A DNA stretch of 64,000 nt from Squalus acanthias. Taxonomy: Eukaryota. Both the position numbers and the translations under genes were made by a program. Shown one piece after another: positions 3,133 through 59,971 of this stretch. Under the pieces are notes generated by a model. That model did no database searches and was not told the origin of the DNA. It worked only from the letters and a program-made list of their open reading frames with translations. Numbering within the stretch: the first letter of the stretch is position 1; each line of letters begins with the position of its first letter. The stretch covers positions 96,846,001-96,910,000 of the forward strand of contig CM059432.1 in assembly GCA_030390025.1 (NCBI GenBank). The letters are read 5' to 3'.

Positions 3133-4979
3133 TTAGTTTAAAGCCCTGTCTACTGTCCTAGTTATTCGGTTCAGCAGGACACTGGTCCCAGCCCGGTTTA
3201 AATGCAGCCCGTCCTGACGGAACAACTCCCTCTTTCCCCAGTACTGGTACCAGTGCCCCATGAACTGAAACCCCTTCCTCCCACACCACTCTTTGAGCCA
3301 CGCATTTAAACCTCTAATCTGTTTGTCTCTATGCCAATTTGCGTGAGGCTCAGGTAACAATCCAGAGATTATTACCTTTGAGGTTTTCATTTTTAATTTG
3401 GATCTTAGCTCTTCAAACTCCCTCAGCAGAATCTCATTACTAGTTCTTCCTATGTCGTTGGTTCCTACGTGGACCACGACAACTGGCTCCTCCCCTTCCC
3501 ACTCCAAGTTCTTCTCCAGCCGCGAGGAGCTGTCTTTAACCCTGGCACGGCAACACAACCTTCGGAACTCTCGGTCGAGGCTGTAGCAAAGAGTATCTAT
3601 CCCCCTGACTATACTGTCCCCTACCACAACTACATTCCCTTTCACTCCCCCCACTTGAATGGCCTCCTGCACCATGGTGCCATGGTCAGCCTGCTCATCC
3701 ATTCTGCAGGTTTTTCTCTCATCCACACAGGCAGCAAGAACCTCATACCTGTTGGAGAAGGGCAAAGTCTGAGGCTCCTCCAGTACTGCACCTGGGGTCC
3801 CCTTACCTGCCTGAGTTGCAGTCACACCCTCCTGTCCCTGACCACTAACCAGACCTGTACCACTACCTAACCTAAGGGGTGTGACTGCCTCCTGGATCAA
3901 AGGGGGAGAAATTCAGTCTCGCCCCATTTGGGGCGCAATTATCGGCCGGGCGCAAAGATTAGCATCTGGCGCTAATTATCGCCACCGACAGCAAACTTGA
4001 CTTTTATCGCCCCTGGAGGTGATTGGAGCGCTAAATCAAGCGCTTCACACCTGTCTTAAGGCACAAAGGCCGAGGAGCAAGGCGCTACCTCAGAGCGCTG
4101 GCGAAGCTCATGTGATGTCAGTCAGCAATGGAACACACACACAATGGCACGGGCCAGTTCTTAAAGGGGATGGTTGATCTTGCTTTCCATCCACATCCTG
4201 CTCATTGCAGCTTTGAATCTCGGCCTGGAGAGACCTGCACATCAAATCTGCTGGAAAGAACAATGGAGAGTACCAGGGAAAGAGCTCAGAGTGCAGCCCC
4301 CACACTCTCTTCTAAATTGAGACAAGGAAGGGCAAATCAAAATGAACCTGCAAAGTGCTGCTCAGTACCCAAAACACCTTCACACAGCGTTGAATCTCTG
4401 CAGAAGTCTCTCTCTCTCTCAGAATGTGTGGTTCAAAAATGGTATCAACAATAAAAGGCAGGAAGCGGTCGCCTTTAAATAGCACTCCCCCAGTCCCTTC
4501 ATGACTGCAAAACGCTCCCCTCAACCTGTCGTTGCTAGCGTCAGGCGGTAAGGCAGGGGGCGCCACTCAATATCCACTCCGGGACGATACCGGGGCGTTG
4601 CGCACTCGACTGACGTCACGATCTGCCGGCGCAGGAGATCGTGGCGGTAGTGCTTAGCGCCACCGCAAAATGTCTAGTTAATTTCGCGAGCGGCGCAAAC
4701 ATCGCGGCGCCTGGGCGCTAGATGCTTTGCGCCCCATTAGCGCCCTCTTAAGGCGCTAATGGGAGGCGCAACCAACTGAATTTTTCCCCCAAAGTGTCCA
4801 GGTAACTCTTCCCCATCCCTGATGCCCCGTAATGTCTGCACCTCAGACTCCAGCTCAAAATCTCTGAGCTGAAGTTCCTCAAGATGCAGGCACTTACTAC
4901 AAACGTGGTTGTCTGGGATCACAATGCTCTCCACAAATTCCCACATGCTGCAGTTGCAGCACACCACTTGCACTACCAT
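3133..4979 (-). pseudogene. CR1 ORF1 (zinc-finger/leucine-zipper + SGNH esterase), split by a Harbinger derivative and frameshifted
   Basis: CCNC...CSKC N-terminus and esterase motifs. After removing 3902-4793 the two halves are one base out of frame. Confidence 0.85.
3902..4790. mobile_element. Non-autonomous PIF/Harbinger element (internal-deletion relative of the 37496-41967 family)
   Basis: TIRs GGGGGAGAAATTCAGT / ACTGAATTTTTCCCCC; AAA duplicated at 3899-3901 and 4791-4793. Both ends align with the ends of 37496-41967. Confidence 0.92.
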
Positions 4980-20158: not shown

Positions 20159-22279
20159 TAGAATCATAGAATAATACAGCACAGAAGGAGGCCATTCAGC
20201 CCATTATGCCTGTGCCGGCTCTTTGAATGAGCTGTCCAATTACTCCCACTCACCTGTGCTTTCCCCATAGCCCTGAAAATGTTTCCCCTTCAAGTATTTA
20301 CCCAATTCCCTTTTGAAAGTTAGTGGCCCGGAATTTGTGATAAGAATAACTATGAAGCTATCAGCACTCACCGTTATAACGGAGGAAATCTGACAGTAAC
20401 TTCTAGCATACGCACATGCGCAATTAAACACGGAAATCGGGATGTTGCTGTCACAGATACACCGCTCATCCACAGGGTGCACTGTAACAGTCCTCGCTGA
20501 GAGACTCGTCATTGGAATCAATGTCATGAACTTGGGGTACTTGCCCATTAGTTCCCCACTAAACACGCCAGAAAAAGTTAGGAGTAAATTAATTTTTAAC
20601 GGTGTGATAAGTGATAATTACTGCCAAACGACCTCTGTGGCCCTGAAAATGTAATCTTACAAGTGTGGAATATCATTTCTTCAGAAGTTAATTAGATTTA
20701 AAAAAAAGTACACTATTTTTTTTAAACTTTTTCTGTATGTCTCCTTTATCTCTCTTTCTTAATCCCACCTGTCTCTCCCAATCTTTATTTTACTTTCTGT
20801 ACATGATTTAAATCTAATTTATACTTCATGCTTTATACTTCCTGGATTAGACTCTGTGGGGGCTAAATTGCATAGCCCCTGAAAACGGGCGCGGGGATCG
20901 CAATGTACGATTAACCCGCGCCCATTCAGTGTAATACAGGCAGCACGCCAACTTTGTGCTGCCTGCTCATTATAATAATTTCAGCGTGCAGTCAGCGCTA
21001 ATCACGCTGTTCATCTGCTGCATGCATCAGCAGGGGGTGGAAAATTGTTAGTAACTTGCACTAATTAAAGCTACCCTGCACTATTTAAAGCTAGCCTGCA
21101 CCTCTTACAGGGAGGTGCATTGTGACTGGAACAGGTGCTGGGAGTCGTTCTGCAACTGAATCTGACCTGGGAAAGAGTGAAGAATGGCTGACCATGGGAT
21201 AGATTGGGCACTGGAGGTCTTGGTGGAAGAGGTGGAAAGGAGGATCGGTGTTCTGTATCCTCGGGGGACCAGGATGCGAAGAAAGCTGCGGAGGTCAATG
21301 CCAGTAGTTTAGCCTCAGGGACCTGGATGCAGTGCCGGAAGAAGTTTAATGACCTCACACAAGTGGTCAAGGTCAGTGAGTGCATCTTCAAATACCATAT
21401 CCTACCAACTGCACCACTAGTCTCAGCCACTGCTCAATTCACCACACCCCCATCACTCACCTACCAACTATCCCTATCAATCAGGACTCATACCTAACAT
21501 TCATATGCTTCACCACACCCTCACACATTTAGCACTGTTGCAAGCCTCACACCCACATCTCACAGCTTGCACACACTGGCAGCTATTCAACTATGACAGC
21601 CACATCACCCAAACATATTGCACAACCCTCACTGACATACTTCCCTCTCTCTTGCAGGACAAGGTTGCACACAACAAGGAGGCAGCAGGAACTAATCGGA
21701 GGGGGATAAGCACATCTGCATGTTCTAACCCCCATGGAGGAGACAGTTCTGGCCATTATGGGAAGGGCCATTGCTGAGGCCGTGGCCACCGGTGGGACTG
21801 AATCCATTGAAGATGATGGTATCCTCATATCTAATCCTCCTTCTCACATCCCACTTCTCCCTCATCCCTAACTCTCTTCTGACTTACAAGCTTCAGATGC
21901 TTTAAGCATGCACTCCTTAATTTTGCCTCCTCCCTCACCACAACCCAACCCTTGTCTCTTTTTCATTTCAGATACCCAAGAACTACAACCTGCCCAAGCA
22001 GTGGAGGAAGAGCGGGAAGACAGTGATGATGAAAACACACTGTCACTTGATTTCACACTCGCAGCCAGCAGTTCAGATAGTGACACTGCGCATATCTTAG
22101 AGTATAGCATAAAGGCGGGAGCTGCATGTGGTGAGACACCGAGCACTAGTGCGCCGCAGTCAGGGCAGGAGGCAATGCTATCACAGGTGCCAGTTCACCT
22201 GAGGGCAAGGTTGCACATGAGTTCTGCTGCAGAGGACTCAGAAGAGGAGTTTTGTGGGCCAGGCTGCAGAAAAAGGCTG

Positions 22280-22837
22280 TGATTTTAATTCTCCGGACCA
22301 CTCCGACTCTGACCTCTCTGTCATGGCCTCCTCCATTGTTCCAATGAAGCTCAATGTAAGCTCAAGGAACAGCACCTCATCTTTCAATTAATCACTAGAC
22401 AGCCTTCCGGACTAAACATTGGGTTCAACAATTTGAGCTCATAATCTCTGGCCCCATTTTGCCGGCGGGCAGCTGCTGTTGATGATTCTGATATTCACAT
22501 TTACACCTCTTCTATAACGATATTTTGTTTCTTTACTTGTCCCATTACCATCTCCTTTCACCTTGCACCATCATCCCTTTTATCATTTAATCTCTCCTGC
22601 CTTCCATCCTATCACAGACCTTCCCATTTGTTCTTTCCTCCCCTCCCCCTTTTCCTGCCTCTGTATTTGCTTAAAACCTGTTACATCTTTAATTTTTTCT
22701 AGTTCTGACGAAAGGTCATCAACCTGAAACGTTAACTCTGTTTCTCTCTTCACAGATGCTGCCTGACCTGCTGAGTATTTCCAGCATTTTCTGTTTTTAA
22801 TTCAGATTTCCAGCATCCACAGTATTTTGCTTTTGTC
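22280..22837 (+). mobile_element. 5'-truncated Penelope (end of GIY-YIG ORF plus pLTR with hammerhead at 22701-22737)
   Basis: Matches 59490-60070; imperfect 13-bp TSD CAGAAAAAGGCTG (22267-22279) / CAGGAAAAGGTTG (22838-22850). Confidence 0.9.
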
Positions 22838-23751
22838 CAGGAAAAGGTTGATCGGTGTACACACCGAAATGCTTGGTGCATTGCAGGCTGCCAGAAAGCT
22901 TGCATTCAATGTCAAGGAGCATGGAGGAGTCCAGCACCAATTTGGCACAGGGCTCTGCGCAGAACTTGGAGCCCATCCTTTCCAGCATGGAACTGGTGGC
23001 CAACTCCATCACCACACTTGTCGAGCCAACCATGATGCAGCGTCTGATGGCCGATGTCTCAGCTTCCATTGCAGCACAAGCAGCAGCCACCCAACGTCTG
23101 AGTGCTGCAGTGGAAGCTCAGACTGATGCCATCATGGCTCAGGATACCAGTGTTCAAAGCGACTTGCAGGGGGTCATAGCAGTCCAGCAATCAGTCCTCC
23201 AACAGATTACTGGATTGGTGAGGAGTTGTTGCGGGGGAATGGCAGAGGCTCCATGGAGCACGAACTTGCTGTCCTTTCTCAGGATGACAGCATTTATGCT
23301 CCCAACCCTGCCACTCTGCCAGTGCCTTTGCTGTTGCCCATCAGCCAGCCAGCCAGACCAGACTGCTGCCGCCCATGCCGAGATGGTGCAGTATGAAGCC
23401 GGGCCTTCTAGTCTCTTAGCTGCTCGAGGTCGTCTTCCAAGGCCATCTGCAGACTGCTCCACTGAAAGTCAGTAGCCTTCCACCAGCCATGCTGCAGCCA
23501 CTGGGGTAGCACTGCGTAGGAGCACTAGGACAGGTAAAGGCACACGGAAGACAGTCAAAATGGAATGCACAAGGGTGATTCATTTATTTTTGTATGCAAT
23601 ATGGCATGATTTAATTTATAAATTTGGATTGGAATGTGTATTTTGTGTTGGCTTTTACTTTTGCATTGTGGGCAAGAGGAAGATGTGATAGTCAGTGACA
23701 TAGAAGGTAAGGAATGTGTGACTTTTGGTGAATGGGAAATTGAGGTTGAGG

Positions 23752-24918
23752 CTACTGGTATTGCACTTGAATTAGTTCTTCACATACAGCCCAGGCAGAA
23801 AGGGGCTGTCTGGGTTGCAGAATCCCTTCCTCTTCCGCCTCTTCTGCCTCCTCATCTTCCTCTTCCTTCTTCTCCTGCTCCTCAGCTTCTCGCCTGATAG
23901 GTGGTGGCAAGGGCTGTTCCCTCATGATGGCAAGGTTGTGCAGCATGTAGCATACCACCACAAATCTTGAGACCCGCTCAGCTGAGTACTGCAGGGCTCC
24001 TCCAGAGTGGTCCAGGCAGCGGAATTGTTGTTTCAGCACGCCAATAGTCTGCTCTGTCAGATCTCTTGTGGCAGCATGGCTCTCATTGTATACATGCTGC
24101 GCACGTGTGCGAGGGTAGCGAACCGGAGTCCTGAGCCATGTCGTCAGTGGCTAGCCCTTGTCTCCCAGTAGCCACCCTTTGGTTTGCTGTGGTGGTTGAA
24201 ATACAGCAGGCCCAGAGGACTGCCGCAGAATGATCACATCATGACTGCTGCCAGGATACCGGGCATTGACCTGCATGATGCACTGCCTATGGTCACACAC
24301 CACCTGCACGTTGAGGGAGTGGAATCCCTTTTGGTTCAGGTACATGGCAGAGTTGACATGAGGAAGATGCAAAGCAATGTGTGTCCAGTCATTGGCACCC
24401 TGCATTATGGGGAAGCCTACAATCCTTGAAAACCCTTGTGCTCGCTCCGCCTGCTTTTCTCTGGCAAGAGGGAATGAATTGAAGTTATCTCTCTTTGAAT
24501 AGAGAGCCTCAGTGACCTCCCTTATGCAGCAGTGCACTGCAAACTGCGAGATGTTGCTAATATCTACAGCAGCAGCCTGGAAGGAGCCAGACGCATAAAA
24601 GTTGATCACCATGGTCACCTTCACAGCCACTGGCAATGTGGTCCCTGCCCCGCTCTGAGGTTGGAGTTGTGCCTGCAGCAGTTGGCAGATTTCAGTGACG
24701 ACCTCCTCAGTGAAGTGCAGACGTCGCAAACATTGTTCATCGCTGAAGTTCAGGTACGAGATTTGTTCCCTGAACACCTTGGGTGAATATGGCCGCCTTC
24801 TGAGAGCCCTTCTCCCCCTCCTCCTTCCTCTTCTAGCAACTTGTCCTGCTCTGCATGGCCTCTGTTCATTCTCCCATTCATGCTCAATTCTGAGAGGAAG
24901 GCTTACTAGTGCACCCAT
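23752..24918 (-). pseudogene. Harbinger (HARBI1-like) DDE transposase pseudogene
   Basis: AVKVT...[26 protein letters not shown] then a stop at 24151; LKQQFRCLD and MLHN follow downstream. Confidence 0.9.
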
Positions 24919-34669: not shown

Positions 34670-36380
34670 TGTAGAATTCGCAATATATCGCGATTTTATA
34701 AATAAGGAGAAAAACACAGAGTTTCGTTCAAACAGCTTTTATTTCAGCAGAATGCTGTCAGGTTTTCAAAGTGGACACAAGCAGCTTGTAAAATGGCCGC
34801 CGCACCTCGTGGCAGAACATTCTAGACTTTTCAACAGGCAGACAAGATGGCGTTCCAGTAAACATTTGTGCAAGATCGATTAAGACTCAGCACATTGAAG
34901 ATAATACACGAGACATCATGGGTTTACAGTATACACATAAATACTGAAATCGGTCTCCCAGGTACGAATGAAAGCTATTGTACCAAGTAATCAAGAGCCC
35001 ATCCAAAGACATTAATATGTAAAATCCCAACGACTCTACGATGAGAGAGCCGTTAGCGGGTAGTTACAGAAAACACTTGGAAGCCCCAAAACCCCTCCAG
35101 GGAGAACACCGACCGATTAAACAATGGGAGAAATATTAACAGGTACTCAGACATTTATGAGTAGCCCCGAAACCCATCAAAAACGGAGATCACCCTATAC
35201 AAGACATTTGAGCGCCAAACCCTAACAAAAGAAAAGACATTAAGGTTGGGCGGGAAACGGAAGATTTTGTACTATAATTACAAGCTCCAAACCGTCCATC
35301 TTTCTCTTATCCTCTTATCTTGCTGGTGTTCATCCTCGTGGCTGCTCCTGTGCTCTTGACTCGCCGTCTTGTTCCTGCTTGCCTCGTGTCTCTTTTAAAG
35401 ACTGTTGAACTTTGTGATCCGCTCGGATCTACCTCGTGTCGTGTCGCGAAGACCTGTGTAGAACTGGGCTCTGAAGCCTTGAAGCGGGCGCACCATTCCG
35501 ATAAGTCGGTAAACGGTGTCGGAACCGAAGGCCCGAGATGAGATGAGATGAGATGAGATGAGATGAGAAGAGAAGAAGACCATACTTATCGCCACGGTCA
35601 GTAAGCCCCGACCGCGCCTATAGGTCGAATAGACATTTTCCTTGCCAGGAAGACTTCTTTGAGTTCTACAGAACTGACACAGGAAGACTCTTCTTCGAGT
35701 TTTATCGAACCTGTGCGAGGGCACAGGAAGACTCTTTTTTGAGTATAGTCGGAACTCCGAGGACAACACAGATCTTCATGACAGCAGACGTTCCAGCCTG
35801 CTAGCCGGAGCAGAACGAGTAAACAAGTGGGGCCAGGAGACCCCCTGATCGACACGTGGGTGCTGCGGTGAAAAACATCCGATCAGAGTTTTCGGAATTC
35901 TCCGAGTTATCACGAGTGGTGAGCATGAGTCTCGAATCCTACGAATCTAGCTTAGGACAGATATTGATAGGGGAGGGTTTCAAGTATTAAGGATAATTGT
36001 AATGTGTGCCCCCATTTACGGTGTGTCATTCGTTCCTCGTTTCCCTGAAATTAGTTACATAACTGCGTGTAAGATTGTACTGTCATTAATCTGTGCTTAT
36101 GACATGTATTTCGTAATCTTAAGTATTATGCAATAAAGATTTTCCATTTCGTACCATTCAACCGAGTCTACCTGAGTTTCATCTCCATTACTGCTCTCGC
36201 ATCTAAGTCCAGTGTCTAGAACTGTAAGGGCGAGTGGGTCGAACCACTCACAGGTGTGTATAGTGCTCCCAGACTGGCTGGAGACCAGAACAGGCAACAA
36301 GGCCTAAACCCGCACTAGCATACAGGCTGCACAGAGCCACACGAATCTCACAGGCTGAGAGACGGTCAGAAACCCTTACA
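34670..36380 (+). mobile_element. Solo LTR, 1711 bp (LTR retrotransposon or ERV; family unassigned)
   Basis: TGTA...TACA termini; TAAC duplicated at 34666-34669 and 36381-36384; GC box 35248, TATAAT 35273, AATAAA 36132; CpG-rich relative to flanks. Confidence 0.88.
35536..35580 (+). repeat. (AGATG)n pentanucleotide microsatellite inside the LTR
   Basis: Six AGATG units followed by AGAAG units. Confidence 0.95.
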
Positions 36381-37853
36381 TAACGAAGAAATATCTTTGT
36401 AACAGTTGGTGCTTGGAGAAATCTTTTTATGTGTAGGCTTTTTAGTTAGTACATCGCGGGATACTGTCTGGAACATTGTGCACTGCTGCTTCTTTACAGC
36501 ATTGTAGCTATTTATGCACCTATGTCAAAACCCTAGGGGGGAATTTTCCGTGGTCAGCGGGCACAATTGGTGGCGGGTCGGGTGGAAAAGTGGGGCTTTT
36601 TGATACCGGGTCAAGACCTCGCTGTCAACCCGCCACCACGTGCCTTTACCAAATGTTGGGTCTGTCAGCACTGAGTAGACCCGACACGCAGCGGTGGGGG
36701 AGGCAATTCACATCATTATGATCTTGTTAACAGAGGATTAACAACAATTTTGAGCTCAACTTTAGAATTTACCAGCTCGCCAACGGGGTCCATGCTGCTT
36801 GGGGATCACGTCTGTTAAGCTGGGCCAGAGTTGAATGGCCATGGAATCATCTCATTACTTGACAGCTGCAAATGTGCTATAAAAGCTCCCATCTCACAGC
36901 TGTTTACTTTCCAAGCTCAGAAGCTGTTGCTTACTGCTTTTGGAAGACAGATTGAGCTTCATGCAGGTTGCAAGTGTTTGAAGCAAACTCTCTATCCAGT
37001 GTCACCTCATTGGAACAACCTCTCTCACCATTGACAGGTTGCTTCTGTCATCACAAGTTCACCTGCCACCTATTCCATCAGCATCAGTGCCCTTTACACT
37101 CTCTCACCTAGGTCCTCAGAATCTGACCACGATCAGCCGCAACACCAGCAGCACCAGGCACACCAGCAGCACCAACAACCACACCAACCTTCTCCGCAAT
37201 CACCTGATGCTCCACAGGACAAACGGCATCAGCACCCAAGTACATTGCTGCCCAGGACGCCAGGGATGGCCTCACCATGGCCACATTTAATTCACTTGAC
37301 GCTGTATACCCTGGCTGCCACATGATGCGCCAGGTTGGCACTACCCCACACCATCACCATAAAGCATCCCTACAATGCCCAAGCCATTCCTTTCACAATA
37401 ACCACCATTGCGGGGGGTGCCGCTATGTCTCACCATTCACTGCAACTCACTAAGCCACTTCCAAATGTGTACACAAATTTGTCCAAGAACACAAATGGGT
37501 AGAAATTAGGTCGCGCCCCATTTGGGGCGCAAATATCGTCCGGACGCAAATATTAGCGCCTGACGCTAATTATCGGCACTGACAGGAAACTTCACTTTTA
37601 CCGCCCCGGGAGGTGAGTGGAGCGCTAAATTAGGCGCTGCACACCTCTCTTAAGGCGCAAAGGCCAAGGAGTGAGGCGCTAACTCAGCGCACGAGCGCAG
37701 CGCAGCTGCTGCCAGTTAGCGAGGGAACACAGACACAATGGCGCTGGACACTTCTTAAAGCGGGGGGGGGCCACTTGCTCCCCAGCCACACCCTGCTCAT
37801 TGCAGCCTTGAATCTCAGCCTGGAGAGACCTGTAATCCATTTTGCTGCCAAGC

Positions 37854-40001
37854 ATGGAGAGGGTGAGAGAACGCGCTCATCGCTTCACCGAGCGGGCCTT
37901 GGATGCTCTGGTTGACGCAGTGGAGCGCAGACGATGCATGCTGTTCCCGGAGAGTGGTAGGAGGCCTTTGCCACGCGAGTTCAGAAGAGTGTGGAGGGAG
38001 GTGGCTCAGAGCGTCTCCTCCAGGAGCATGGTGCCCAGGACCCATGTTCAATGCCGCAAAAAGTTCAACGACCTCACTCGGGTCGTCAGGGTGAGTGGCT
38101 TTTTCTCAATACCTCTCCATCCCTCCATCTCAACCTCACTCTATGGCCAGAGGGTCTTAAAACCCCAATGCACAACACTCATCCAACACCTATGGCCCTT
38201 TCATCAAACACACACACACATTCTACACTTTGCATACAGTAAGGGCTATTCACCTATGGGAGGCACATCAGGCAAGACCATGGCTGCATACAGTAAGGGC
38301 TATTCACCTATGGGAGGCACATCAGGCAAGACCATGGCTGCATACAGTAAGGGCTATTCACCTATGGGAGGCACATCAGGCAAGACCATGGCTGTATATT
38401 GTAAGGGCTATTCATCTATGGGAGGCACATCAGGCAAGACCATGGCTGTATATTGTAAGGGCTATTCACCTATGGGAGGCACATCAGGCAAGACCATGGC
38501 TGTATATTGTAAGGGCTATTCACCTATGGGAGGCACATCAGGCAAGACCATGGCTGTATATTGTAAGGGCTATTCACCTATGGGAGGCACATCAGGCAAG
38601 ACCATGGCTGTATATTGTAAGGGCTATTCACCTATGGGAGGCACATCAGGCAAGACCATGGCTGTATATTTACTCAGATGCTGTCCTTTTTCTTGCAGGC
38701 TAAGCTGGCTCATAATCGGAGACAGCAGCAACGGACGGGTGGAGGGCGGCTTCAGCTGCAACCCCTCAGCGATCTGGAGGAGCGCGTCCACAGGATTGTG
38801 GCAAGCCGGGTGATCGGTCCCGTCGCCACTGGAGACGCCGACCCCGTTGTGGACAGCAATGGTAAGGTCATCACCTTTTTGTCCTCTGTCCTTCCACTTG
38901 TCCCTCACAATACCAGCCTTTGACACTTTCAATCCAACTTGCTAACTCGCTGCACTTATTCCTCCCTTACTGCCACCCTGTCCTCACGCTAAAGCCACTC
39001 TTGTACCTCCCTGCTTTCAGATGGTGATTCACCAGCTGAGGAGACGGGCCCTGAAGCTGCCACTGGGAGTGATGCTGCAGCTGAGGAGGAAGAGGAAGCC
39101 GGAGCATCAGTGCCACCCTCTCCCGAGGAAGCCCATGCCCACACTGGGAACACGCCTTCCCCGGAGGGGAGCAGGGGGGAAGGGGCTGATGATGGTGAAG
39201 CTCCAGGACCCAGCGGGTTGCAGCAACGCCATGGGGGGGGGGAGGGAAGAACGGGGGCCTTCTCCCCAGAGGGAGAGTATGCCAGACACTCCTACTGCAA
39301 TGGACGCAGAGGAGGAGCGGCTGATTGCAGAAATGAACAGCCAGGCGGTGGGCATGCACACTGAGCTCATGGGTGCAGTGGGAAGGGTGCCCGAATGCAT
39401 TGAGTCACTGGCAAGGAGTGTGGAGCACTTCGCTGTAGCACAGGCGGATGCCACACTAAAGCTTAGTGCTGCAATTCAGTCACTGGCTGCCAGGAACCCA
39501 TCTGAGACTGCTCTCATGCAGACTCAGATTGAGGCCACGCGAGCACTGACTGCTGCCATCCTCGATGGTTCGTGCACATGTCCCCGGGGCTGTCACCGCG
39601 CTGCAGCAGGCCAGCAATCTGTTCTCCGGCAAATTGCTCCGGATGCTGAAGTGCTGCCCCGTGGGAGTGCCAGTGTGTCGGGCGAGCAGGGAGTTGCTGT
39701 CCTCTCTCACGATGACAGCATTCCTGCTGCCAACACTGTCACTTCTCCACTGCACTTGCCACCGCCTGTAGGACAGACTGCTGCCGCCCATGCAGAGTTG
39801 GTGCAGTCTGCAGCCGGGCCCTCCAGGCCCAGAAGTGGTCGAGGCCGTCCTTCAGGGGCATCTGCAGTGTCAGGGTCTGACGAGCAGCAGCCTTCCACCA
39901 GCCTTGCTGCAGCCACTGAGGTCCCATTACGGAGGAGCAGTAGGGTTAGAAGGGGGGAAGTGCGCAAGGGAAGGAGATCACCCTCGAAGGGCAAAAAGTA
40001 G
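37854..40001 (+). CDS. Harbinger Myb/SANT-like DNA-binding protein; exons 37854-38090, 38699-38861, 39021-40001; one frameshift at G10 (39233-39242)
   Basis: RAHRFTERALDALV..W..VA..RTHVQCRKKFNDLTR trihelix motif; GTGAGT and GTAAGG donors, TTGCAG and TTTCAG acceptors with compatible phases; the same exon layout recurs in three other elements here. Confidence 0.85.
38231..38670 (+). repeat. Minisatellite, 8 x 54 bp, in Myb intron 1
   Basis: Unit TG(C/T)ATA(CA/TT)GTAAGGGCTATTCACCTATGGGAGGCACATCAGGCAAGACCATGGC; 3 copies of one variant, then 5 of the other. Confidence 0.98.
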
Positions 40002-40295
40002 GAGGTGTGCCAAAATGCTGGTCATTTTTTTATTAAAGGCCGAGGTTCATGGTCCAACTTTTGTTTAGTGTTTTGGACATTATCTCCAGGTTGTGAGAAC
40101 CAGTTATGTTATTGACTGTTTTTTTGTGTTTATTTCTATGAGTTTGTCATGAGGAATTGACACACACAGAGTTTGTAAAATAAATAAGTTTCTGTATTCA
40201 AAATATACATGGCTGGTGGTTGGAATTATTGGTGCCTTGGCCGGCTTAGGGGTTGCGTGCTGGGTTGATTAGTGTTTGTAGCAATGGCAGGGGCC

Positions 40296-41456
40296 CTAGA
40301 AGCGGCTTGCTATTAGTCGTTGACGGACAGCCCTTGCAGTTTGACCATTGTGGGCCGCCCTCCTGCCTTGGTGCTGCTGCTGATCATCGTCCTCGTCCTC
40401 TTCCTCCTCCTCCTCCTCCTCCTCTGGTGGTGCTACAAGGCCTGGTGGCATTGGCTGGGTCCTGAGGATTGCCATGTTGTGCAACATGCAGCACACGACT
40501 ACGAAGTTCGAAACTTGCTCAGGCGAGTACTGCAGGGCTCCTCCGGAATGGTCCAGACAGCGGAACCGTTGTTTCAGCACGCCGATTGTGCACTCAATAA
40601 TGTTCCTGGTTGCTTGATGGCTTTCATTGTACCGCAGCTCAGCAGGGGTGTTTGGCGTACGGAGCGGTGTCATCAGCCAGGTGCTCAATGCGTACCCCTT
40701 GTCCCCCAGAAGCCAACCAACTGGCTGATGCGGTGCCTCGAAAACTTCTGCCACAGTAGTCTGGCGCAGGATGAAAGCATCGTGGCAGCTGCCCGGATAG
40801 TGGGCATTGACAGCGAGTATCACCTGTCTGTGGTCACAGACCAACTGCACATTCAAGGAATGGAACCCCTTTCTGTTCCTGAATTCCTCTGCATTCTCTC
40901 GCGGAGCACGCAAAGCCACATGCGTGCAGTCAATGGCGCCCTGCACCATGGGGAAGCCCGCTACCCTCGCAAAGCCCAGAGCACGGTCACGCTGCTTGTC
41001 TGGGGTCATAGGGAAAGAGATGAAGTCTCGTCTCCTTCTGAAGAGGGCATTGGTGACCTGCCGGATGCAGCGATGCACCGCAAACTGGGAGATATTGGCG
41101 AGGTCCCCAACAGCAGCTTGGAATGAGCCAGTGGCGTAGAAGTTCAAAGCCACTGTGACCTTCACTGCCACCGACAGAGACGTCCTGGACCTCAGCTGAG
41201 GCTGCAGATCTGGCTGCAGCAGGTGGCAGAGCTCAGTGACCACCTCCTTGCTGAATCGCTGCCTTCGCAAACACAGCTCCTCGGACATATGGATGTAGGA
41301 GAGCTGTTCACGATATACCCTGGGAGGGTAAGCTCTCCTGTACATGCGCCTGATGGCCCTCCTCCGTCTGGCCATCATTGCCACTCTCTGTCTGCGTCTC
41401 ACTATCCTCCGATTCAGCTGGAGCAGGACGACGCCCCCAATCATTGCAGCCCCCAT
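40296..41456 (-). CDS. Harbinger (HARBI1-like) DDE transposase, 386 aa, intact
   Basis: Uninterrupted ORF from ATG 41456; catalytic motifs GAIDCTH, LLGDKGY and RNIIE, plus [27 protein letters not shown] and CCMLHN. Confidence 0.95.
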   Translation of the reverse strand: MGAAMIGGVVLLQLNRRIVRRRQRVAMMARRRRAIRRMYRRAYPPRVYREQLSYIHMSEELCLRRQRFSKEVVTELCHLLQPDLQPQLRSRTSLSVAVKVTVALNFYATGSFQAAVGDLANISQFAVHRCIRQVTNALFRRRRDFISFPMTPDKQRDRALGFARVAGFPMVQGAIDCTHVALRAPRENAEEFRNRKGFHSLNVQLVCDHRQVILAVNAHYPGSCHDAFILRQTTVAEVFEAPHQPVGWLLGDKGYALSTWLMTPLRTPNTPAELRYNESHQATRNIIECTIGVLKQRFRCLDHSGGALQYSPEQVSNFVVVCCMLHNMAILRTQPMPPGLVAPPEEEEEEEEEDEDDDQQQHQGRRAAHNGQTARAVRQRLIASRF

Positions 41457-43046
41457 ATTCTCTTTGCGAGAAAAGTAATGAGGTACAGCAACTAAAGTAG
41501 CAACAAAGTTAGGATGAACTAGCAAAACTACCTCACAAAGCGTTGAGTCAATGTAGAAGTCTCTCTCTCTCTCTCTCCGAATCTCTCTCTCTCTCTCAGA
41601 ACGAGTGGTGCATAAATGTCGACCACAGAAAAAGACAGGAAGAGGCCCCCTTTAAATAGCGCCCCCCCCAGCCCCACACCGATTGATAACGTTCCAGTCT
41701 TCCGGTCGTTGGAAGTGCCAGGTGGTAAGGCAGGGGGCGCCACTCAATTTCCTCTCCGGGGCGCCCCAAGGGCGTTGCACCATGGAATGACGTCACAATC
41801 TGCGCGCGCAGGTGGTCGCAGCGGTAAGTTTTAGCGCCGCCGCACAATCTCAAGTTAAGTTCTCGAGCGGCGCAAACAGCACTGCGCCCGGGCGTTAGCG
41901 GCTTAACGCCCCATTAGCGCCCTCTTAAGGCGCTAACGGGAGGCGCAACCAAGTGAATTTTTACCCCAAAGTGTTGAAAATAAAGATTTCAATGTTTGAC
42001 AGCACATTAACAGAAACTTCACATGAACATTGGCTAAAACACCCAAGTACCTACCCTTGTGTGTTAGTTGGTATGATTGGACTAGGATGAAGGTGAGTGT
42101 GAGGGGTGGCTAGTGAGATGGGGAAGTGATAATGTAGATAGAGAGGGATGAGTGGAGGTGCAAGGTAAGTTGGTGTGAGTAAGGATGTGCAGGAGTGGGG
42201 TAGGGAAGGCAGAGTGGTGGGGATATGATGAGTGACACAGCAGGATGAGGTTGAGTGCGGCTTTGCAGTAACGTTTCCTGATCTACTGTGATCATTGAAA
42301 GGTTTGCGCCACTGCAGCCTGGTCGTCCTGACGACATTCCTGCTTGTGTCCTCCTGTGCAATGTGTAACCAGGCTGCGCTGGTCTCCTGGGGAGGTGTCT
42401 TCCACCCATTGGACGGGAAGAGAACCTCCCTGCGTGCTGTGACTTCCTCCATAAGCAAATGGAGGGAGTCATGGGAGAGCTTGGGTGCAGCTGTGCACCT
42501 CTGTGCAGTGCTTGTCAGTGTTTGCAGCACCTCAATGCTGTAGAACGCTGACAGCACAAATGTCAAAGTAAATTTGCGCATGGTCCCTTTAAGGAAGCTG
42601 GCTGATGATGTGTCATCAAATGACGTCATCAGACCCGCTTCTTTTATTGGACCGGGAATCATGCTGGGCGGGCTTAACAAGCCCCATTACAGCAAAATCC
42701 TTTCTTGCAGTGGGATGAAGGCAGCAACGGGTGCGCAGACCGCCACCGACCTCGCCTGCCACGGACCCGCCCAGGCAGGGGAAATCGCGACCCTAGTCTC
42801 CTCGTTTCTATGAGGTAGATTTTCATCTTCACTGTGTAGGTGATAATCTGTATCTGAAGTTTTAGACCAAACAGTGACTGACCTTATCAAAAGAAAAAAA
42901 TAGGTGTAATACATTTTCAGAAGTCAGGTCAGTTAATAGCACTCTGAATTTTCCCCACAAACACTTGCTGCTGACTGAAGATATCACTTATCTGCCAGTA
43001 GTAATTGATTCCTAAATTGGGGCACAACCTATTGTTGGAACACATG

Positions 43047-46000
43047 GGGGGAGAAATTAATTGTAGCCCAGGAATGGGTGGTAACTTCAGAAAAGTTTGA
43101 GATTGGCGCTAATGAATCACGCTATACTCAAAATGAACTCTCATCGCTCAAAGAAAGGATGGGAGTGCTAAATCAAGGACTAATGGCCTAGCTCATGGTG
43201 CTACACTGAAAGCGCTAACCAATATCAGGTGCAGTCTAATCGTAAGTCATCATTGCCACAGGCTCTTTGCAGTTCTTAAAGGGGAGGTTCATTCGTGCTG
43301 CAGAACCTCATTTTCAGCATTGCTGGCTGTGAACCTGTGTGAGCAAACATAAGCAGGCCAAGACCAAGGAGCCGGACCACTCAAGCAGGTGTCATGATAG
43401 CAGATCCACGCCCCAGGGAGAGAGCCTGCAGATTTTCAGACCAAGCATTGGAGGAGTTGATGTCCGCTGTGGAGAGACGGAGGGTGGTGCTCTACCCGGC
43501 AAGTGGCAGGGGGCACTCGCTGCAAGTCTTCCGCGCCATGCGAAGGGAGGTAGCGCAGCACGTCTCGGGCAGCACTGTGGTCTCTAGGACCCACACACTG
43601 TGCAGGAAGCAATTTAACGACCTCACTCGGGTGGTCAGGGTGAGTCAAAGCTTCAACAAATGCTACATACCACCATCTGAACCTCAGTCTGCACACACTG
43701 GCCAAAGCACCACACCCCCAGTACTCACCCACCAACAATCTCCACCTACCAACACTCACACCCACATCTCACACCTTGCACACAATTACAGCTATTCAAC
43801 TATGGCAGGCACATCACCCAAACACATTGCTCCACACTCACACACTTTTCTTTCTCTTGCAGGCCAAGGTCGCTCACAGCAGGTGGGAGCAGGAGTGCAC
43901 AGGCGGGGGACAAGCCGACACCCAACCACTGTCTGCGCTGGAAAATAGAGTGCTGGAGATTATTGGGTACCAGTTGGTGGACGCCGTGGCCAATGGCGAT
44001 GTTGACCCCCTTGGTCTGTTCATCCCTACTCCTTCTTCTCACATCCCACTTCCCCCTCACCCCACAAGCCTTTCACACTTTCCAGCTAATCATGCTATAT
44101 GCAAGCATTTCTCCCTTCCTGCCCCCCTCCCCTCACCTTAACCCAACTCTCGTGCGTTTATGCTTTCAGATAATGAGCAAGCACCTGAGCAGCCTGTCCC
44201 TGAGGGCACCGTAGAGAGCGAGGCGGGAGAAGAGGAGGAGGAAGAACACACCGCGTCACTGCATGTCTCACCCGCAGGCACCAGCTCAGATACTGGCACT
44301 ACAATAATATAGTAGCGGGATCTGCACAGGGTGATGCACCGGGAATGATAAGGCTGCAGCAAGGCCAGGGGGAAAGGGTAGCTCGGGGGCCAGCTCCCCG
44401 GAGGGCGGGTTCGCGCATGAGTTCTGCTGTACAGGACTCAGATGAGGACCTCAATGGGGAGGCCTTTAGAAGAAGGGTGATGGGCATGCACACACATATG
44501 ATAGATGCAATGGCAAGGGTGCCCAAGAGCCTCTCAGCAATGATAAGGAGCATGGAGGAGTCTGCCTCCAACATTTCACAAGGCTCTGTGCACAAAATGG
44601 AGCCCATCATTTGCAGTCTGCAAAGGATGGTCGACTCCCAGAGAGACTGTGGCGACCCAGACCTGATGCCACGTGTGATAGGCAAAGGCACAGTAATGAG
44701 GGGCACTAAGGGATTGCACAAGGTTGAATAGTTAATATTGTTGTTGTAAATATGTGTTAACTGATTATTGATAAATTTATTAATTCAGTTTGGATTATTT
44801 TGTGTCTCATTTCAGCTTTGTGCTGTGAAATGGCCTGTGACAGGGATGGAATGATGGGGATGTGGTGAGCAACGGGGATCTGGGATTTAATTTATTGAAA
44901 CCGCAGTCTGATGAGGCAGGCATAAAGCCGATTGAGTGGCTGCCTCCTCCCTTGCTCCTGTTCCTCGTTCTCGTCCTCCTCTTTCTCTTCCTGAGGTGGA
45001 CCCACAATCCCTGGTGGCAAGGGCTGGGACCTTATGATGGCCAAATTGTGGAGCTTGTAGCAGACGACAACGAAATGGGACACCTGCTCAGCCAAGTACT
45101 GGAGGGCTCCTCCCGAGTGGTCAAGGCAGCGGAACCATTGCTTGAGCACACTGATGGTCTGCTTGATGACGTTCCTGGTGGCAGCATGGCTCTCCTTATA
45201 TGAGTGCTGGGCAGGAGTGTTGGGGTTGCGGAGGGGAGTCATGAGCCAGGTGGACAGTGGACAGCCCTTGTCTCCAATCAGCCAGTCGCGAGCTTGATGT
45301 GTTGGCTGGAAGAGTGCTGGCACACCGGTCTGGCGCAAGATGAAGGCATCGTGGCTGCTGCCAGGATAGCGGGCATTCACATTGAGAATTCGCTGTCCGT
45401 GGTCGCATACCAACTGCACATTAAGTGAGTGGTAGCCTTTGTGGTTACAGAGATCTCAGGATTGTTATGCGGTGCCCGCAAAGTCACGTGGGTGCAGTCA
45501 ATGGCGCCCTGCACCATGGGGAATCCCGCTATCCTGGCAAAGCCAAATGCACGTTCGTCCTGCTTCTCTCTGGTGATGGGGAAGGAAATGTAGTCCCTTC
45601 TCCTACTGTAGAGAGCCTCTGTGACCTCCCGTATGCAGCGATGGATGGCGAACTGTGAGATGCTAGCTATGTCTCCTGTTGCAGACTGGAAGGATCCGCT
45701 GGCGAAGAAATTGAGGGCAACGGTGACCTTGACTGCCACTGGGAGACCCGTGGTCGTCTTGATCTGAGGCTGGAGGTCTGGTTACAGGAGGTGGCAGAGT
45801 TCTGTGACCACCTCCTTGGTGAAGTGGAGCCTTCTAATACACTGCTCGTCGCTTAATTGAAGGTAGGAGAAGTGCTGTCGGAATAACCTCAAAGGGTAAG
45901 GCCTCCTGTTGACATCCCTCATGTCCCTCCTCCTCCCTCTGGCCACACGTTCCAATCTTTCTCGCTGCCTGCGCTCCCTCCGCTGTAGATCCTGGAGGGC

Positions 46001-46512
46001 GAGGTCAACTGCCAGTACAGTGTCCATTAATGTAACCAAGTGTAGCAATTTGATATGTTATGAGAATAAACATAACTCATTTTTAGTAGCCACGACACTC
46101 TGGAGACTAAACAACTGATGACTGATTTAAACTGTTACACAATGTCAATCTGACAAGGAAGCAGTGAAACAGCACTAACCTGACAGCTGCGACTCATTAC
46201 TCATGATCCCTTTAAGTAACGTCCCTGGAGCCGGCTACCGACTGCTTCATGCCTCCTCTCTCTGTCGCTGTCGGGGCGAGGCGCTAAAGCAAGGGGCGAT
46301 AATCAATTTCGCAGATTGTGTGCCCAGTGAGCGTTGCACGATCTGACTGGCGCTGAATTCCCCGGCGCTAACTCATAGCGGCGGTGCTACAGGGGTGCCG
46401 GATTTTGCATGCATCACTGGATTCGTCTTGCCGCGGCGCTACTGCCTCAGCGCCCCGTTAGCGCCCCCGCCAGGCGCTAACTGGAGGTGCTTAGGTACAG
46501 AATTTCTCCCCC
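43047..46512. mobile_element. Full-structure Harbinger of another family (Myb + at 43394-44730, transposase -); both genes disrupted
   Basis: TIRs GGGGGAGAAATT / AATTTCTCCCCC; RACRFSDQALEEL..CRKQFNDLTR Myb motif. Confidence 0.93.
44892..46048 (-). pseudogene. Harbinger transposase pseudogene (three consecutive frames)
   Basis: ORFs 45782-46048, 45377-45739 and 44892-45419 carry successive motifs including GAIDCTH, LIGDKG and FRCLD. Confidence 0.92.
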
Positions 46513-52764: not shown

Positions 52765-55013
52765 AAACAGAAAATGCTGGAAATACTCAGCAGGTCAGGC
52801 AGCATCTGTGGAGAGAGAGTTAATGGCCGCGATTTTGCCAGCGCTCAGAGGGCAGGCTTGGAGGCGGGTCAGAGGTTAAATTCATTTTGATTGACGGCAG
52901 GTTCGGAACCCGCCGTCAACCCGCCTCTACGCAACTTTGCCAAGTGCCGGGTCTAGGAGTCCCGCTCAAACCCGCCACCAAGCGGCGGGAGAGGCACTTA
53001 AGGCAGTTAACAGCTTGTTCCACACCGTTCGCAAAACACGCCAGCGGATTGTGCTGAGTTCAGGAACTAAGCGAATTCTTGACAGCTGCACCTACAGCAT
53101 AAAAGTGGACCTGTAAAAAGGCTGACTTTCAGATGGCAGAACTTTGATTTTTGAGGTGTTGGAACACTTTTTGCAGGTCTATTGAGCTTGTAAGTGGTTA
53201 AGCTGAGATCCATATGCACTGTGACCTCCTTGGAAAACCCTCTCCCCACATTGCCTGAGTGCTTATAACATCTATTCCTCAACTGACATATATACCAGCG
53301 GAATGGGAACCATTTATACCCTCTCATCCTGGTCCTCAGAATCTGAGGAAGAGCAGCCGTGGCAGCAGCAGAACCCGGCACAACAGCAGCAGCAACAACA
53401 GGAGCGCCAACCTTCTCCTCACCCACCTGATGCTGCACAGGGCAGAGGGCGTCAGCGCAGGGCTGCACCGCACCGCAGGAGATTCCCCCAACACAGGGTT
53501 TATAGGCAGAGGATGAGCTTCCTCAACATGACTGAGCAGCAGTGCCAAAGGAGGCTGAGACTTTCGCAACAGGTAGTCGTTGACATCTGCGCAATGTTGC
53601 ACCAACACCTGGAGCCCAGAGGAGCGGGTGGACACTCCTTACCAGTGGCTGTCAAAGTCACCACCGCCCTCAATTTTTTGCATCAGGGTCCTTCCAGGGA
53701 TCATCAGCAGACATCAGCGGCATCTCCCAGTCAGCCGCACACACTTGCATGCACCGATACCCTCTTTGCAAAGGCGCACAATTACATCCACTTCTCCACA
53801 GATGAAGCAAGTGTAACCGTGCGTGCGGTTGGCTTTGCAAATATGGCAGGCTTGCCAAGGGTGCAGGGCATCGTAGACTGCACACATGTGGCCATTAGGG
53901 CACCCCATCACAACTAAGCTGTATTTGTGAACCGCAAGGGCTTCCACTCCCTTAACGTCCAGCTGGTATGTAACCACAGAAAGGACATTATGCATGTTTG
54001 CGCCAAGTTCCCTGGCCATTGCCATGACTCGTTCATCCTGCAGCAGTCTACTGTGCCTCAGCTCTTCAATCCGCCAACCCAACCTTCCAGATGGCTACTT
54101 GGAGACAAGATCTATCCCCTGAAGATGTGGCTAGTGACGCCGTTGAGGAGGCCATCAAACGAAGCTCAGGAGCGCTACAATGCGAGCCACATTTCCACCA
54201 GAGCCATCATCGAGCAAACCATTGGCTTGCTCAAAATGCGATTCAGATGCCTCGACAGATCAGGTGGAGCCCTACAGTACTCACCAGCCAGGGTCTCCAG
54301 AATCATCATGGTCTGCTGTGCACTGCACAACATCGCACAGCAGCGTGGCCTGAGGAGCAAGTGGCTCAGCGCACAGCCTCCTCCTCCTCACAGTGGGGAG
54401 GGGGGCTCTTGATGGTCCTGTGGGGGAGTAAAGGCATGAGTTAGAAATGTGATATTAATGTAGCAGGCACATTGAATTGTGCAGATGATCATAACTCAAT
54501 CTGTATGAACATCAGATGACATATCAGTCACTCATGCAATCTAACTGAGAGGGCTGCTCATCTCCTCAGCAATTTGCAGCCAGGCTGCTTTGGTTTGCTG
54601 AGGAGGCTTCCTCCATCCATTTGAGGGAACAGTACCTCTTGGCGCACTCTCACTCCCTCCACAAGAGCATGGAGGGAGTCATCATCAAATCTGGGAGATG
54701 CCTTGGGTCTTGCAGCAGTCATTTTCACAAGTGGTACACGGAGAAGCAGCAGAATAGGATTGATCAAAAACAAGGCTGCATGGGCCCCTTAAATGCAGCT
54801 GGCTGACAGGTCAGCAGAGGCGAGCAGCAGACCTGAACCCAATGATTGGGCTGGGTAGCGCGCATGATGGGCTTAATCAGCCCACTTAAGCAAAAATTGT
54901 AATTCCATTGCGGCTGAAACCGGCAGCGGGACCGGAACCCGCCGAACATCAAAGCCACCTCCAACCCACTTCCACTCGGAAAATCGTAGCCGGAACATTT
55001 CAGGTCAATGACC
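52765..55013 (-). mobile_element. Penelope pLTR fragment split by a Harbinger (52765-52824 + 54994-55013)
   Basis: AAACAGAAAATGCTGGAAATACTCAGCAGG...GAGTTAAT | AACATTTCAGGTCAATGACC rejoins to the pLTR sequence seen at 57660-57742. Confidence 0.8.
52825..54991. mobile_element. Harbinger with frameshifted transposase (+, 53303-54412) and Myb exon 1 remnant (-, ~54558-54720)
   Basis: Ends GGCCGCGATTTT / [44 protein letters not shown] and CCALHN motifs. Confidence 0.92.
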
Positions 55014-56045: not shown

Positions 56046-56595
56046 AAAGATTTTAATGACAACCTGTGTGTAAAGCTACACATTGTAGCTTTGGTTCACG
56101 TGGAAAAGAAGCAGTATCAGTGTAGGATTTACCAAAACAGTCCCATTGCCCTAAAGTAGAACTGTTAGAATCCACACAATCTAAGAAATGTAAGCATCAT
56201 ATTTCTAACTGTTACTTGTTGACATAAATTTGACACCTAATCTGGAATACATTATAGTAAATGTCTCTCAGTAAACTGACCCATTGTGAACCAGTCAAAC
56301 AGCTTAATGTACTCCACAAGTAGTGCTCTGTTTGATAAATGAACTTTCAGATCAAAACAAAATGTTTTGCCACGTGTTAAAAAAAATGCATTACCCTGCT
56401 TGTCAGTTCAAAAGGATATAAGTGATTTTCAGTTCAGGTACAGAATGCACAAAAACTTCTTGTTTTCCTTCTAAAATTAAATTGATAATAAAATTATTCA
56501 GATGATTAAAGACTGGCTATTAATTATACTTGAAAATATCCAATTCACCTCTCTTACGTTTCCTGGGGGTAGAATATGTTTTTTTCGGTTGAATT

Positions 56596-57584
56596 AGAAA
56601 CATAGAAGATAGGAGCAGGAGTAGGCCATTCGGCCCCTCGAGCCTGCTCCGCCATTTAATGAGATCATGGCTGATCATCCAAATTCAGTACCCTGTCCCT
56701 GCTTTCTCCCCATATCCCTTGATCCCTTTAGCCTTAAGAAATATATCTATCTCCTTCTTGATTATATTTAATGAATTGGCCTCAACTGTCTTCTGTGGTA
56801 GAGAATTCCACAGGTTCACCACTCTCTGGGTGAAGAAATTCCTCCTCATCTCAGTCCGAAATAGCTTACCCCTTATCCTTAGACTGTGACCCCTGGTTCT
56901 GGACTCTCCCGCCATCGGGAACATCCTTCCTGCATCTAGTCTGTCTAGTCTTGTTAGAATTTTATAAGTTTCAATGAGATCCCCTCTCATTCTTCTAAAC
57001 TCTAGCGAATATAAGCCTAATCGACCCAATCTCTCCTCATATGCCATTCCTGCCATCCCAGGTATCAGTCTGGTGAATCTTCGCTGCACTCCCTCCATGG
57101 CAAGAACATCCTTCCTCAGATAAGGCGACCAAAACTGCACACAATACTCAAGGTGTGGTCTCACCAAGGCCCTGTACAACTGCAGCAAGACATCCTAGCT
57201 CCTGTACTCGAATCCTCTCGCTATGAAGGCCAACAGACCATTTGCCTTCTTAACCGCCTGCTGCACCTGCATGCTTACCTTCAGCGACTGGTGCACAAGG
57301 ACACCCAGGTCTCATTGCACTTCCCCTTTTCCCAATCTATTGCCATTCAGATAATAATCTGTCTTCCTGTTTTTGCCTCCAAAGTGGATAACCTCGCATT
57401 TATCCACACTATACTGCTTCTGCCATGCATCTGCCCAATCACCTAACCTGTCCAAATCATACTGGAGTTTCTCTGCATCCTCCTCACAGCACACAGGCCC
57501 ACCCAGCTTTGAGTCGTCTGCAAACGTAGAGATATTACATCTAGTTCCCTCGTCTAGATCATTAATATATATTGTGAATAGCTG
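56596..57584 (-). mobile_element. 5'-truncated young CR1 LINE
   Basis: RT C-terminal ORFs and TTCTATG-type tail; GAATT at 56591-56595 and 57585-57589. Confidence 0.93.
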
Positions 57585-58080
57585 GAATTCACCCGAAATT
57601 GGCGTAACCGCTGCAAAAATCTCAGAACTTTAAGCGCAAATTACGTTTAGCGCAAATAACAACAGAAAACGCTGGAAAAACTCAGCAGGCCAGGCAGCAT
57701 CCGTGGAGAGAGAAAGAGAGTTAACGTTTCAGGTCGATGACCTTTCGTCAGAACTGTGAAGAGCCGGAAATCAAATAGATTTAAGGCCAGAGTAAAGCTG
57801 GGAAAAGGGGGAGGGGATAAAAGAACAAAGGGGGAGATGAAGAGACATTAAGAGACATTAAGAGATATGCAAGGCTAGAGGTGGTGTTAATGTGACAGAT
57901 TAAGGCTGAAAGAAGTGTGAAATCCACTGGCAGAATGAAGGACAGCTGCCAGCTTCTAGGAGGAAAAAAAAAAGGTGGGGGGGAGGCAAATAAAAGGGTG
58001 GAAAAAATAAAATATAAATGTGATTGGAGCTGAGGTTATGATCTAAAATTGTTGAATTCGATATTGAGTCCAGAGGGCTC

Positions 58081-59655: not shown

Positions 59656-59934
59656 CCTCAGCTCCAATCACATTTATATTTTATTTTTTCCACCCTTTTA
59701 TTTGCCTCCCCCCCACCTTTTTTTTTCCTCCTAGAAGCTGGCAGCTGTCCTTCATTCTGCCAGTGGATTTCACACTTCTTTCAGCCTTAATCTGTCACAT
59801 TAACACCACCTCTAGCCTTGCATATCTCTTAATGTCTCTTAATGTCTCTTCATCTCCCCCTTTGTTCTTTTATCCCCTCCCCCTTTTCCCAGCTTTACTC
59901 TGGCCTTAAATCTATTTGATTTCCGGCTCTTCAC

Positions 59935-59971
59935 AGTTCTGACGAAAGGTCATCGACCTGAAACGTTAACT
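59935..59971 (+). ncRNA. Minimal type I hammerhead ribozyme motif (AACGUU variant); mirror copy at 57719-57755 (-)
   Basis: AGTT-CTGACGA-A-AGGTC-ATC-GACCT-GAAA-CGTT-AACT. Confidence 0.85.

Follow-up and report, generated by a model that had tools for sequence, protein, structure and literature searches.

A full-length two-gene Harbinger element in Squalus acanthias, probably a decaying copy of a many-copy elasmobranch family

The DNA analysed here (the window) is a stretch of 64,000 nucleotides from Squalus acanthias, assembly GCA_030390025.1, contig CM059432.1, positions 96,846,001 to 96,910,000 of the forward strand. At positions 37496-41967 of the window lies a full-length two-gene Harbinger transposon of 4,472 bp, with exact ends and an AAA flanking each side. 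It belongs to PIF/Harbinger, as a DDE_Tnp_4-type transposase, a Myb/SANT gene, terminal inverted repeats (TIRs), a 3-bp duplication and interspersed copies are all present. Both Harbinger proteins are required, with the Myb partner enabling import into the nucleus (PMC9710019, PMC9179366). The element had been described before, from the letters of the window, and the anatomy given in this original prediction was confirmed, namely the ends, the AAA duplication, the open reading frame (ORF) of 386 aa, the GT..AG Myb exons and the position of a run of ten G (G10). Twenty sequencing runs from 12 studies with nine organism labels share at least half of the sampled words from 38700-41500. Four of the 20 (X1, X13, X19 and X6) were aligned to the element over the stretch 38680-42400, with the left TIR and the exon 1/2 junction outside it. 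The features of the element are as follows.

37493..37495, forward strand: left target-site duplication AAA, centre of the palindromic target ACAC-AAA-GTGT
37496..37507, forward strand: left TIR, imperfect, first base T where G is expected
37508..37760, unstranded: left subterminal region with repeated GGCGC(A/T)A (four matches), candidate Myb-binding sites
37854..38090, forward strand: Myb exon 1, Myb/SANT-like domain (PF13873, E 1.3e-9)
38091..38698, forward strand: intron 1, GT..AG, holding a tandem array of eight 54-bp units at 38239-38670
38699..38861, forward strand: Myb exon 2
38862..39020, forward strand: intron 2, GT..AG
39021..40001, forward strand: Myb exon 3, acidic N-terminal part followed by the homologous C-terminal frame (39243-40001)
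39233..39242, forward strand: G10 run shifting the frame; elsewhere an in-frame 6-nt G5T (X13, X19, X6) or one base shorter (X1)
39362..39364, forward strand: premature stop of the spliced frame as assembled (247 aa)
40029..40184, unstranded: candidate poly(A) signals between the converging genes, AATAAA at 40029 and 40129-40134 (reverse), ATTAAA at 40032 (forward) and AATAAA at 40179 (forward)
40296..41456, reverse strand: Harbinger DDE transposase, open, 386 aa, D176/D252/E288 (PF13359, E 6.6e-39)
40592, reverse strand: near-private change to Cys289 (Arg in the runs), beside the catalytic Glu288
41260, reverse strand: near-private change to Gln66 (Leu in the runs)
41640..41955, unstranded: right subterminal region with six GGCGC(A/T)A motifs and a C8 run at 41662-41669
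41956..41967, reverse strand: right TIR; other flanks beyond 41967-41974 in X13, X19 and X6
41968..41970, forward strand: right target-site duplication AAA; a single AAA at the empty sites in X1

The TIR pair is short and imperfect: 10 of its 12 bases agree, it is not among the repeats listed by a general repeat search, and the usual Harbinger TIR is longer, 25-50 bp (PMC9179366). The boundaries are given by empty sites. In X1, 55 loose ends run from the right flank into left-flank-like sequence (26 of 30 positions identical, compared by eye) across one AAA. They mark other copies of the surrounding repeat in which the site is empty, and their single AAA therefore fixes both element ends and the duplication. 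Behind the right TIR, different flanks are found in X13, X19 and X6, which therefore represent other insertion sites of interspersed copies. The surrounding repeat is itself Harbinger-derived and older (approximately 36300-43000). It is a deletion piece with the 5' part of a transposase (36993-37233) on the left and a Myb exon (42488-42282) on the right; its segment 42055-42179 is the bin of highest summed depth in X1 and X19, and its ends were not found.

ACWC stands directly outside the duplicated triplet at six of the seven Harbinger ends in the window (background 0.74%, p ~1e-12, for a motif that was picked after the ends had been inspected), and the triplet itself is AAA/TTT at six of seven. 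By analogy with the zebrafish element Harbinger3_DR, insertion would occur into a palindromic ACWC-NNN-GWGT with duplication of the central 3 bp. The left TIR of the focal copy begins with T, and all six other Harbinger ends in the window begin with G. In mPing, position 1 is among the conserved TIR positions, and single-end changes at positions 1-3 are additive with the other end (PMC9921582). The motif GGCGC(A/T)A occurs 32 times in the window. Twenty-seven of these occurrences lie at the ends of three elements, 10 in the focal element, 11 in a miniature inverted-repeat transposable element (MITE) and six in a neighbour at 43047-46512. We infer that the repeat is a candidate Myb-binding site, comparable to the subterminal motif of Harbinger3_DR (PMC9710019). 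The MITE is the following feature.

3902..4790, forward strand: non-coding MITE-like relative, 889 bp, AAA/AAA flanks, both ends about 80% like the focal element

Its left end is 81% identical to the left subterminal region of the focal element. The MITE has perfect GGGGG ends and, with a CpG ratio of 0.80, the highest value among the regions compared.

The protein of Myb exon 1 is 50-59% identical to the homologous proteins P0122, P0123 and P0130, and P0123 and P0128 are continuous across the exon 1/2 junction in protein comparison. The exon 2/3 junction is seen in a single X13 contig, whose loose end of 11 nt in front of 39020 repeats 38850-38860 exactly; this run is only guessed to be RNA, and the contig informs on the family rather than on the focal copy. 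None of the 20 runs is recorded as RNA and four are guessed to be, which says nothing on expression. As the original prediction held, the spliced frame stops at 39364 and a tract of nine G restores 459 aa. In full, the spliced product is 247 aa with G10, 458 aa with a tract of 6 nt, 459 aa with 9 nt and 460 aa with 12 nt. The frame downstream of the G run is homologous, as proposed: it matches three sisters in the window, and the representative library contains 10 matching proteins. Full-length P0123 (554 aa) matches exons 1 and 2, the start of exon 3 and the downstream C-terminal frame. The tail that follows the G run as assembled matched only itself in the window and among the homologous proteins. 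Judged by these comparisons, the downstream frame is the true Myb C-terminus; it ends in a basic tail with 12 K/R in the final 25 aa. The G10 frame retains the Myb domain and exon 2 and drops the conserved C-terminal block and the basic tail, and the copy as assembled is therefore not autonomous.

A word-index search with the Myb C-terminal frame returned 0 matches at E<=0.001 among 6,926 candidates, and an exon-1 search for longer proteins returned one of 158. A full HMMER scan with the C-terminal frame gave 10 matches, with P0129, P0131, P0125 and P0132 among the spurious or chimeric ones. P0125, a Pristiophorus gene model of 801 aa, joins a RING/B-box/coiled-coil N-terminus to exons 2-3 of a Harbinger Myb partner and is either an exonisation or a chimeric prediction. 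The minisatellite of intron 1 (38231-38670) consists of two unit variants in blocks of three and five, with a donor-like word GTAAGG in each unit; of the eight-unit array, each of two sisters holds only one degenerate piece. A second run of nine G (37762-37770) lies upstream of the Myb gene, directly behind a TATA-like word. It is aligned with an interrupted tract of the MITE and mirrors the C8 upstream of the transposase gene.

If the G10 allele is taken at face value, a stable Myb protein of 247 aa that only binds DNA might be made, since a stop in the last exon may escape nonsense-mediated decay, and it may dampen the family as a dominant-negative repressor. The retained Myb domain and exon 2, together with the loss of the conserved C-terminal frame and basic tail, would suit such a role, and at least one run shows splicing of the family. 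However, the proposal is pure inference, neither the focal copy nor the G10 state was seen in a transcript, the focal copy shows no sign of selection, and loss of the basic tail may exclude the protein from the nucleus. We regard a repressor as very unlikely.

The reads reveal other states of the tract. X13, X19 and X6 each hold a contig with four letters missing at 39233 and G>T at 39242, that is, an interrupted in-frame tract of 6 nt (G5T). The contig of X13 is 248 nt long and has four other differences, that of X6 is 704 nt long and has six. In X1, the best-matching run, 22 contigs (123,091 of 893,087 summed depth, about 14%) are one letter shorter and thus carry a 9-nt in-frame tract, and T stands at 39242 in 34 contigs (380,171 of 728,761 summed depth). 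The length of the G run in sister copies, to which the original prediction had pointed, thus gives a 9-nt form in X1 and G5T in the other three runs. Homologous proteins agree with the G5T state. The spacer between LQx and PxP has nine codons in P0123, P0125, P0126, P0130 and the sister at 44.3 kb, that is, in five of the five readable cases, the pattern being readable in only four of 11 public homologues. In the focal copy the same spacer measures 31 nt, and a 6-nt tract would bring it to exactly 27 nt (31 minus 4).

It had been suggested that the tract might be a slippage switch, here understood as a run selected to turn Myb production, and with it transposition, on and off. Its place in coding sequence, where length sets the frame, and the existence of two or more length states are what such a switch would need. 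Against it, the tract is the interrupted G5T in three of the four runs, the three sisters aligned over it have no run longer than 5 G, the homologous proteins have varied residues at this position, and none of the five readable homologues has an extra codon. Moreover, the non-coding C8 at 41662, which served as a control, varies equally freely, with one base more in 40 and two more in 29 X1 contigs; drift in run length is therefore family background and no switch is needed. A many-copy, trans-complemented element would also gain little from a switch in each copy; trans supply of both functions has been reported in C. inopinata (PMC13668399). The switch is thus highly improbable and we abandon it.

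Homopolymer indels are a common error of long-read assembly, and G10 could be such an error. The locus would then carry an in-frame tract of 9 nt, encode a Myb protein of 459 aa and have both ORFs open, while the changes in transposase and TIR would stay. The one-base-shorter tract in 22 X1 contigs speaks for this explanation. Against it stand the natural variation in homopolymer length seen in X1 (C8 to C9/C10) and the age of the copy, which sufficed to gather several point changes; mononucleotide runs slip much faster than bases substitute. We consider an error of assembly unlikely as an account of the locus. Of the origins offered earlier, sequencing error or recent slippage, slippage (or else a homopolymer error) is the likeliest last step: most likely G10 is a +1 slip on a secondarily expanded tract, and less likely an assembly error. 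The tract would have arisen in three steps. The interrupting T of G5T changed to G, the pure run was expanded by slippage, with the 9-nt in-frame form of X1 as a possible witness, and a further +1 slip led to G10.

Damage to the focal copy does not end with the G run. The catalytic residues of its transposase (P0001) are the majority state among homologues (D176 in 97 of 117, D252 in 93 of 115, E288 in 75 of 116). Four near-private letters of the focal copy were found among 40 listed of 207 difference rows: 39632 (silent), 40592 (R289C), 41260 (L66Q) and 41716 (non-coding), each at odds with almost all depth in every run with coverage there. At 40592 the runs have the other letter in all depth shown (4/4 runs), and at residue 289 Cys occurs in none of 115 homologues, 106 of which have Q, H, R or K. 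At 41260 the other letter makes up 184,756 of 184,921 X1 depth and all depth in the other three runs; residue 66 is Leu in 77 of 91 homologues and in all four window sisters, and Gln in one homologue. The open frame itself says little, as in simulated random change a 386-codon ORF stays stop-free in 89% of copies at 0.3% and in 67% at 1%; an open ORF is therefore no sign of selection at such an age. Among solved structures P0001 had no meaningful match, the best (E 0.0046) falling on the acidic tail. Together with the Myb stop at 39364, Gln66, Cys289 and the T at the TIR lead us to predict that the focal copy is not autonomous. The claim that it is one homopolymer base from fully intact is not supported, given these two residues and the non-G first TIR base. 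As to its possible activity, the evidence on the focal copy leans against it, and for the family there is no evidence either way.

The family is many-copy and of low divergence. The 20 runs share 51-91% of sampled 31-mers, corresponding to a difference of about 0.3-2.2% per base. In X1, 33,980 contigs were aligned, 6,062 of them at 99% identity or more, with several distinct right flanks. A tree built from 37 selected proteins places P0001 with four Pristiophorus copies (support 96/95). By this tree and the listed transposase relatives, the host would most likely be a shark close to the Pristiophorus lineage. Near-identity over nine labels could also be expected of a gene pair domesticated at a single locus and kept in related sharks, and conserved cross-order elasmobranch Harbinger proteins do exist. 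However, both TIRs, the duplication and the subterminal repeats are retained, variant contigs number in the thousands, there are empty sites and other flanks, and P0001 clusters with the Pristiophorus copies apart from the conserved cross-order pairs. Domestication is accordingly a most improbable account of the near-identity. A domesticated locus of the HARBI1/NAIF1/MSANTD type was considered as a candidate and rejected in view of the TIRs, the duplication, the many copies, the empty sites and the tree placement.

The focal copy carries about 0.1% private change (four in about 3.3 kb), and by word share the nearest X1 sequence is at most about 0.3% away. In the epaulette shark, which belongs to another lineage, the mutation rate is 7e-10 per base per generation (PMC10587355). 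As a rough estimate, the focal copy may thus be a million generations old or more. At such a rate, low divergence need not mean recent origin, and related sharks could hold nearly identical copies with no horizontal transfer. Relatives were confirmed for none of 622 pattern matches in metagenome contigs and none of 602 in viral contigs, so that no vector for horizontal transfer was seen. The data would fit horizontal transfer and slow vertical descent alike. We hold it to be unlikely that the family, as distinct from the focal copy, retains members in present-day sharks that are both wholly intact and mobile. It would then be a native vertebrate Harbinger that requires no reconstruction, its palindromic target spanning about 11-13 bp with the AAA duplication inside, and the identity of about 98-99.7% across nine labels could in part reflect horizontal spread.

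We consider it likely that the focal copy is one decaying copy of a many-copy, low-divergence elasmobranch PIF/Harbinger, in which G10 is wear and other damage is present besides. The intact family form would comprise a DDE transposase gene on the reverse strand and a spliced gene for a Myb-like partner of about 458 aa on the forward strand, converging on each other. As in Harbinger3_DR, the Myb protein may bind the subterminal repeats, import the transposase into the nucleus and deliver it to the element ends. In the focal copy, G10 would cut the Myb protein to 247 aa with loss of the basic tail, the transposase would have gained at least two missense changes at conserved sites, and TIR position 1 has probably changed as well. 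Such a copy could at best be mobilised, or supply one protein, in trans.

Several points weigh against this reading. G10 is read from the assembly. The 4-base deletion was found in none of the X1 contigs, despite 34 that bear the T, and X1 contigs are short; the 9-nt form in X1 may be either G9 or G8T, and may or may not stem from the focal locus. About 55% of X1 was read, and summed contig depth is not copy number. The left TIR lies beyond read coverage. The count of private letters rests on 40 of the 207 difference rows, and the homologue set consists mostly of gene models of decayed Pristiophorus copies, so that its counts are not independent. The effects of L66Q, R289C and the TIR base are putative, and the mPing data suggest that a single-end change lowers mobility and need not abolish it (PMC9921582).

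Between the converging genes, AATAAA signals are present at 40179 on the forward and at 40129 on the reverse strand, as had been reported. Overlapping 3' ends of the two genes are possible on this arrangement; they are not implied, as had been claimed, given the alternatives at 40029 (reverse) and 40032 (forward). With ATTAAA at 40032 as its signal, the Myb mRNA could end short of any overlap. The AATAAA pair appeared in overlap order in 1.5% of 5,000 shuffles, both signals anywhere in 3.1% and the reverse-strand signal alone in 41%. In none of three sister ranges did a forward-strand poly(A) signal appear.

At least four other decayed Harbinger transposases lie in the window, with a stop in each. 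At least five further decayed Harbinger pieces were noted in the 64 kb (43047-46512, 21200-24900, 15200-17200, 52800-54700, 8896-9178, 11159), and these pieces have the same GGGGGAGAAATT-type ends. This suggests that Harbingers are clustered or nested in the window. Beyond the family in question, several clades of Harbinger transposases stand out by short branches and by 72-89% identity between genera of sharks and rays (P0005/P0006, P0011/P0013, P0023/P0026/P0071, P0039/P0040, P0009/P0018/P0021/P0022/P0024/P0033); most members are without the catalytic Glu or an Asp, and by their sequences these clades are candidates for elasmobranch-specific domesticated transposases. Other repeats of the window include 57654-60036, where an open ORF of 537 aa (58042-59655) is flanked by a 429-bp inverted repeat that is 99.3% identical. 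We take the encoded protein to resemble a Penelope-type reverse transcriptase with GIY-YIG, and the insertion is probably very young. CR1-like fragments at 56595-57585 and 61547-62537 form an inverted pair, 95.8% identical over 991 bp.

Named elasmobranchs account for 114 of the 120 listed transposase matches, including all of the first 61, as models of a 'putative nuclease HARBI1'. The closest of the listed matches is P0002 of Pristiophorus japonicus at 66%; P0001 itself is absent from the collection. The Myb-like models P0123 and P0130 are alike as well, with an exon structure and C-terminal block that fit in P0123. These relatives differ from the focal transposase in that the catalytic Glu is kept in only two of the 19 picked, as against 75 of 116 overall. 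In the elephant shark no Harbingers were found, and testing of other cartilaginous fish has been called for, according to the part of PMC9179366 consulted; for the whale shark PIF-Harbinger is listed, the elements not being described in the part of PMC8455134 seen. Among the papers listed by our literature search, which covered few subscription journals and neither Repbase nor Dfam, none was seen to describe a shark Harbinger that is intact or active. The present analysis documents a full-length two-gene Harbinger in an elasmobranch, which PMC9179366 had named as a gap, and supplies the exon structure, AAA duplication and palindromic target of the family, whose form is almost directly readable from public contigs.

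The vertebrate system named in review is a reconstructed one (PMC3016246), Harbinger3_DR of zebrafish. It likewise has a DDE transposase and a Myb-like gene, short TIRs and a 3-bp duplication (PMC3016246, PMC9710019, PMC9179366), a palindromic target with an ACAC-type arm, AAACACCWGGTCTTT (PMC3016246), and a repeated subterminal motif as candidate Myb site. It differs in the centre of the target, which is CWG as compared to AAA/TTT at six of seven ends here. The shark element has its own subterminal motif, GGCGC(A/T)A, with putative binding, and an elasmobranch host, and the two are compared by these features. LatiHarb1 of the coelacanth and teleost Harbingers are also high-copy, in other host lineages; they comprise autonomous as well as non-autonomous members, and transcription has been reported (PMC3787270, PMC9179366). 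If intact members of the shark family were still mobile, they would be a natural, site-selective Harbinger from a vertebrate, of use in mechanistic studies or for gene delivery. Natural activity is found in Ping/Pong/mPing of rice, a two-protein PIF/Harbinger system with MITE derivatives as here, which differs in its plant host and has a duplication of the TAA/TTA type.

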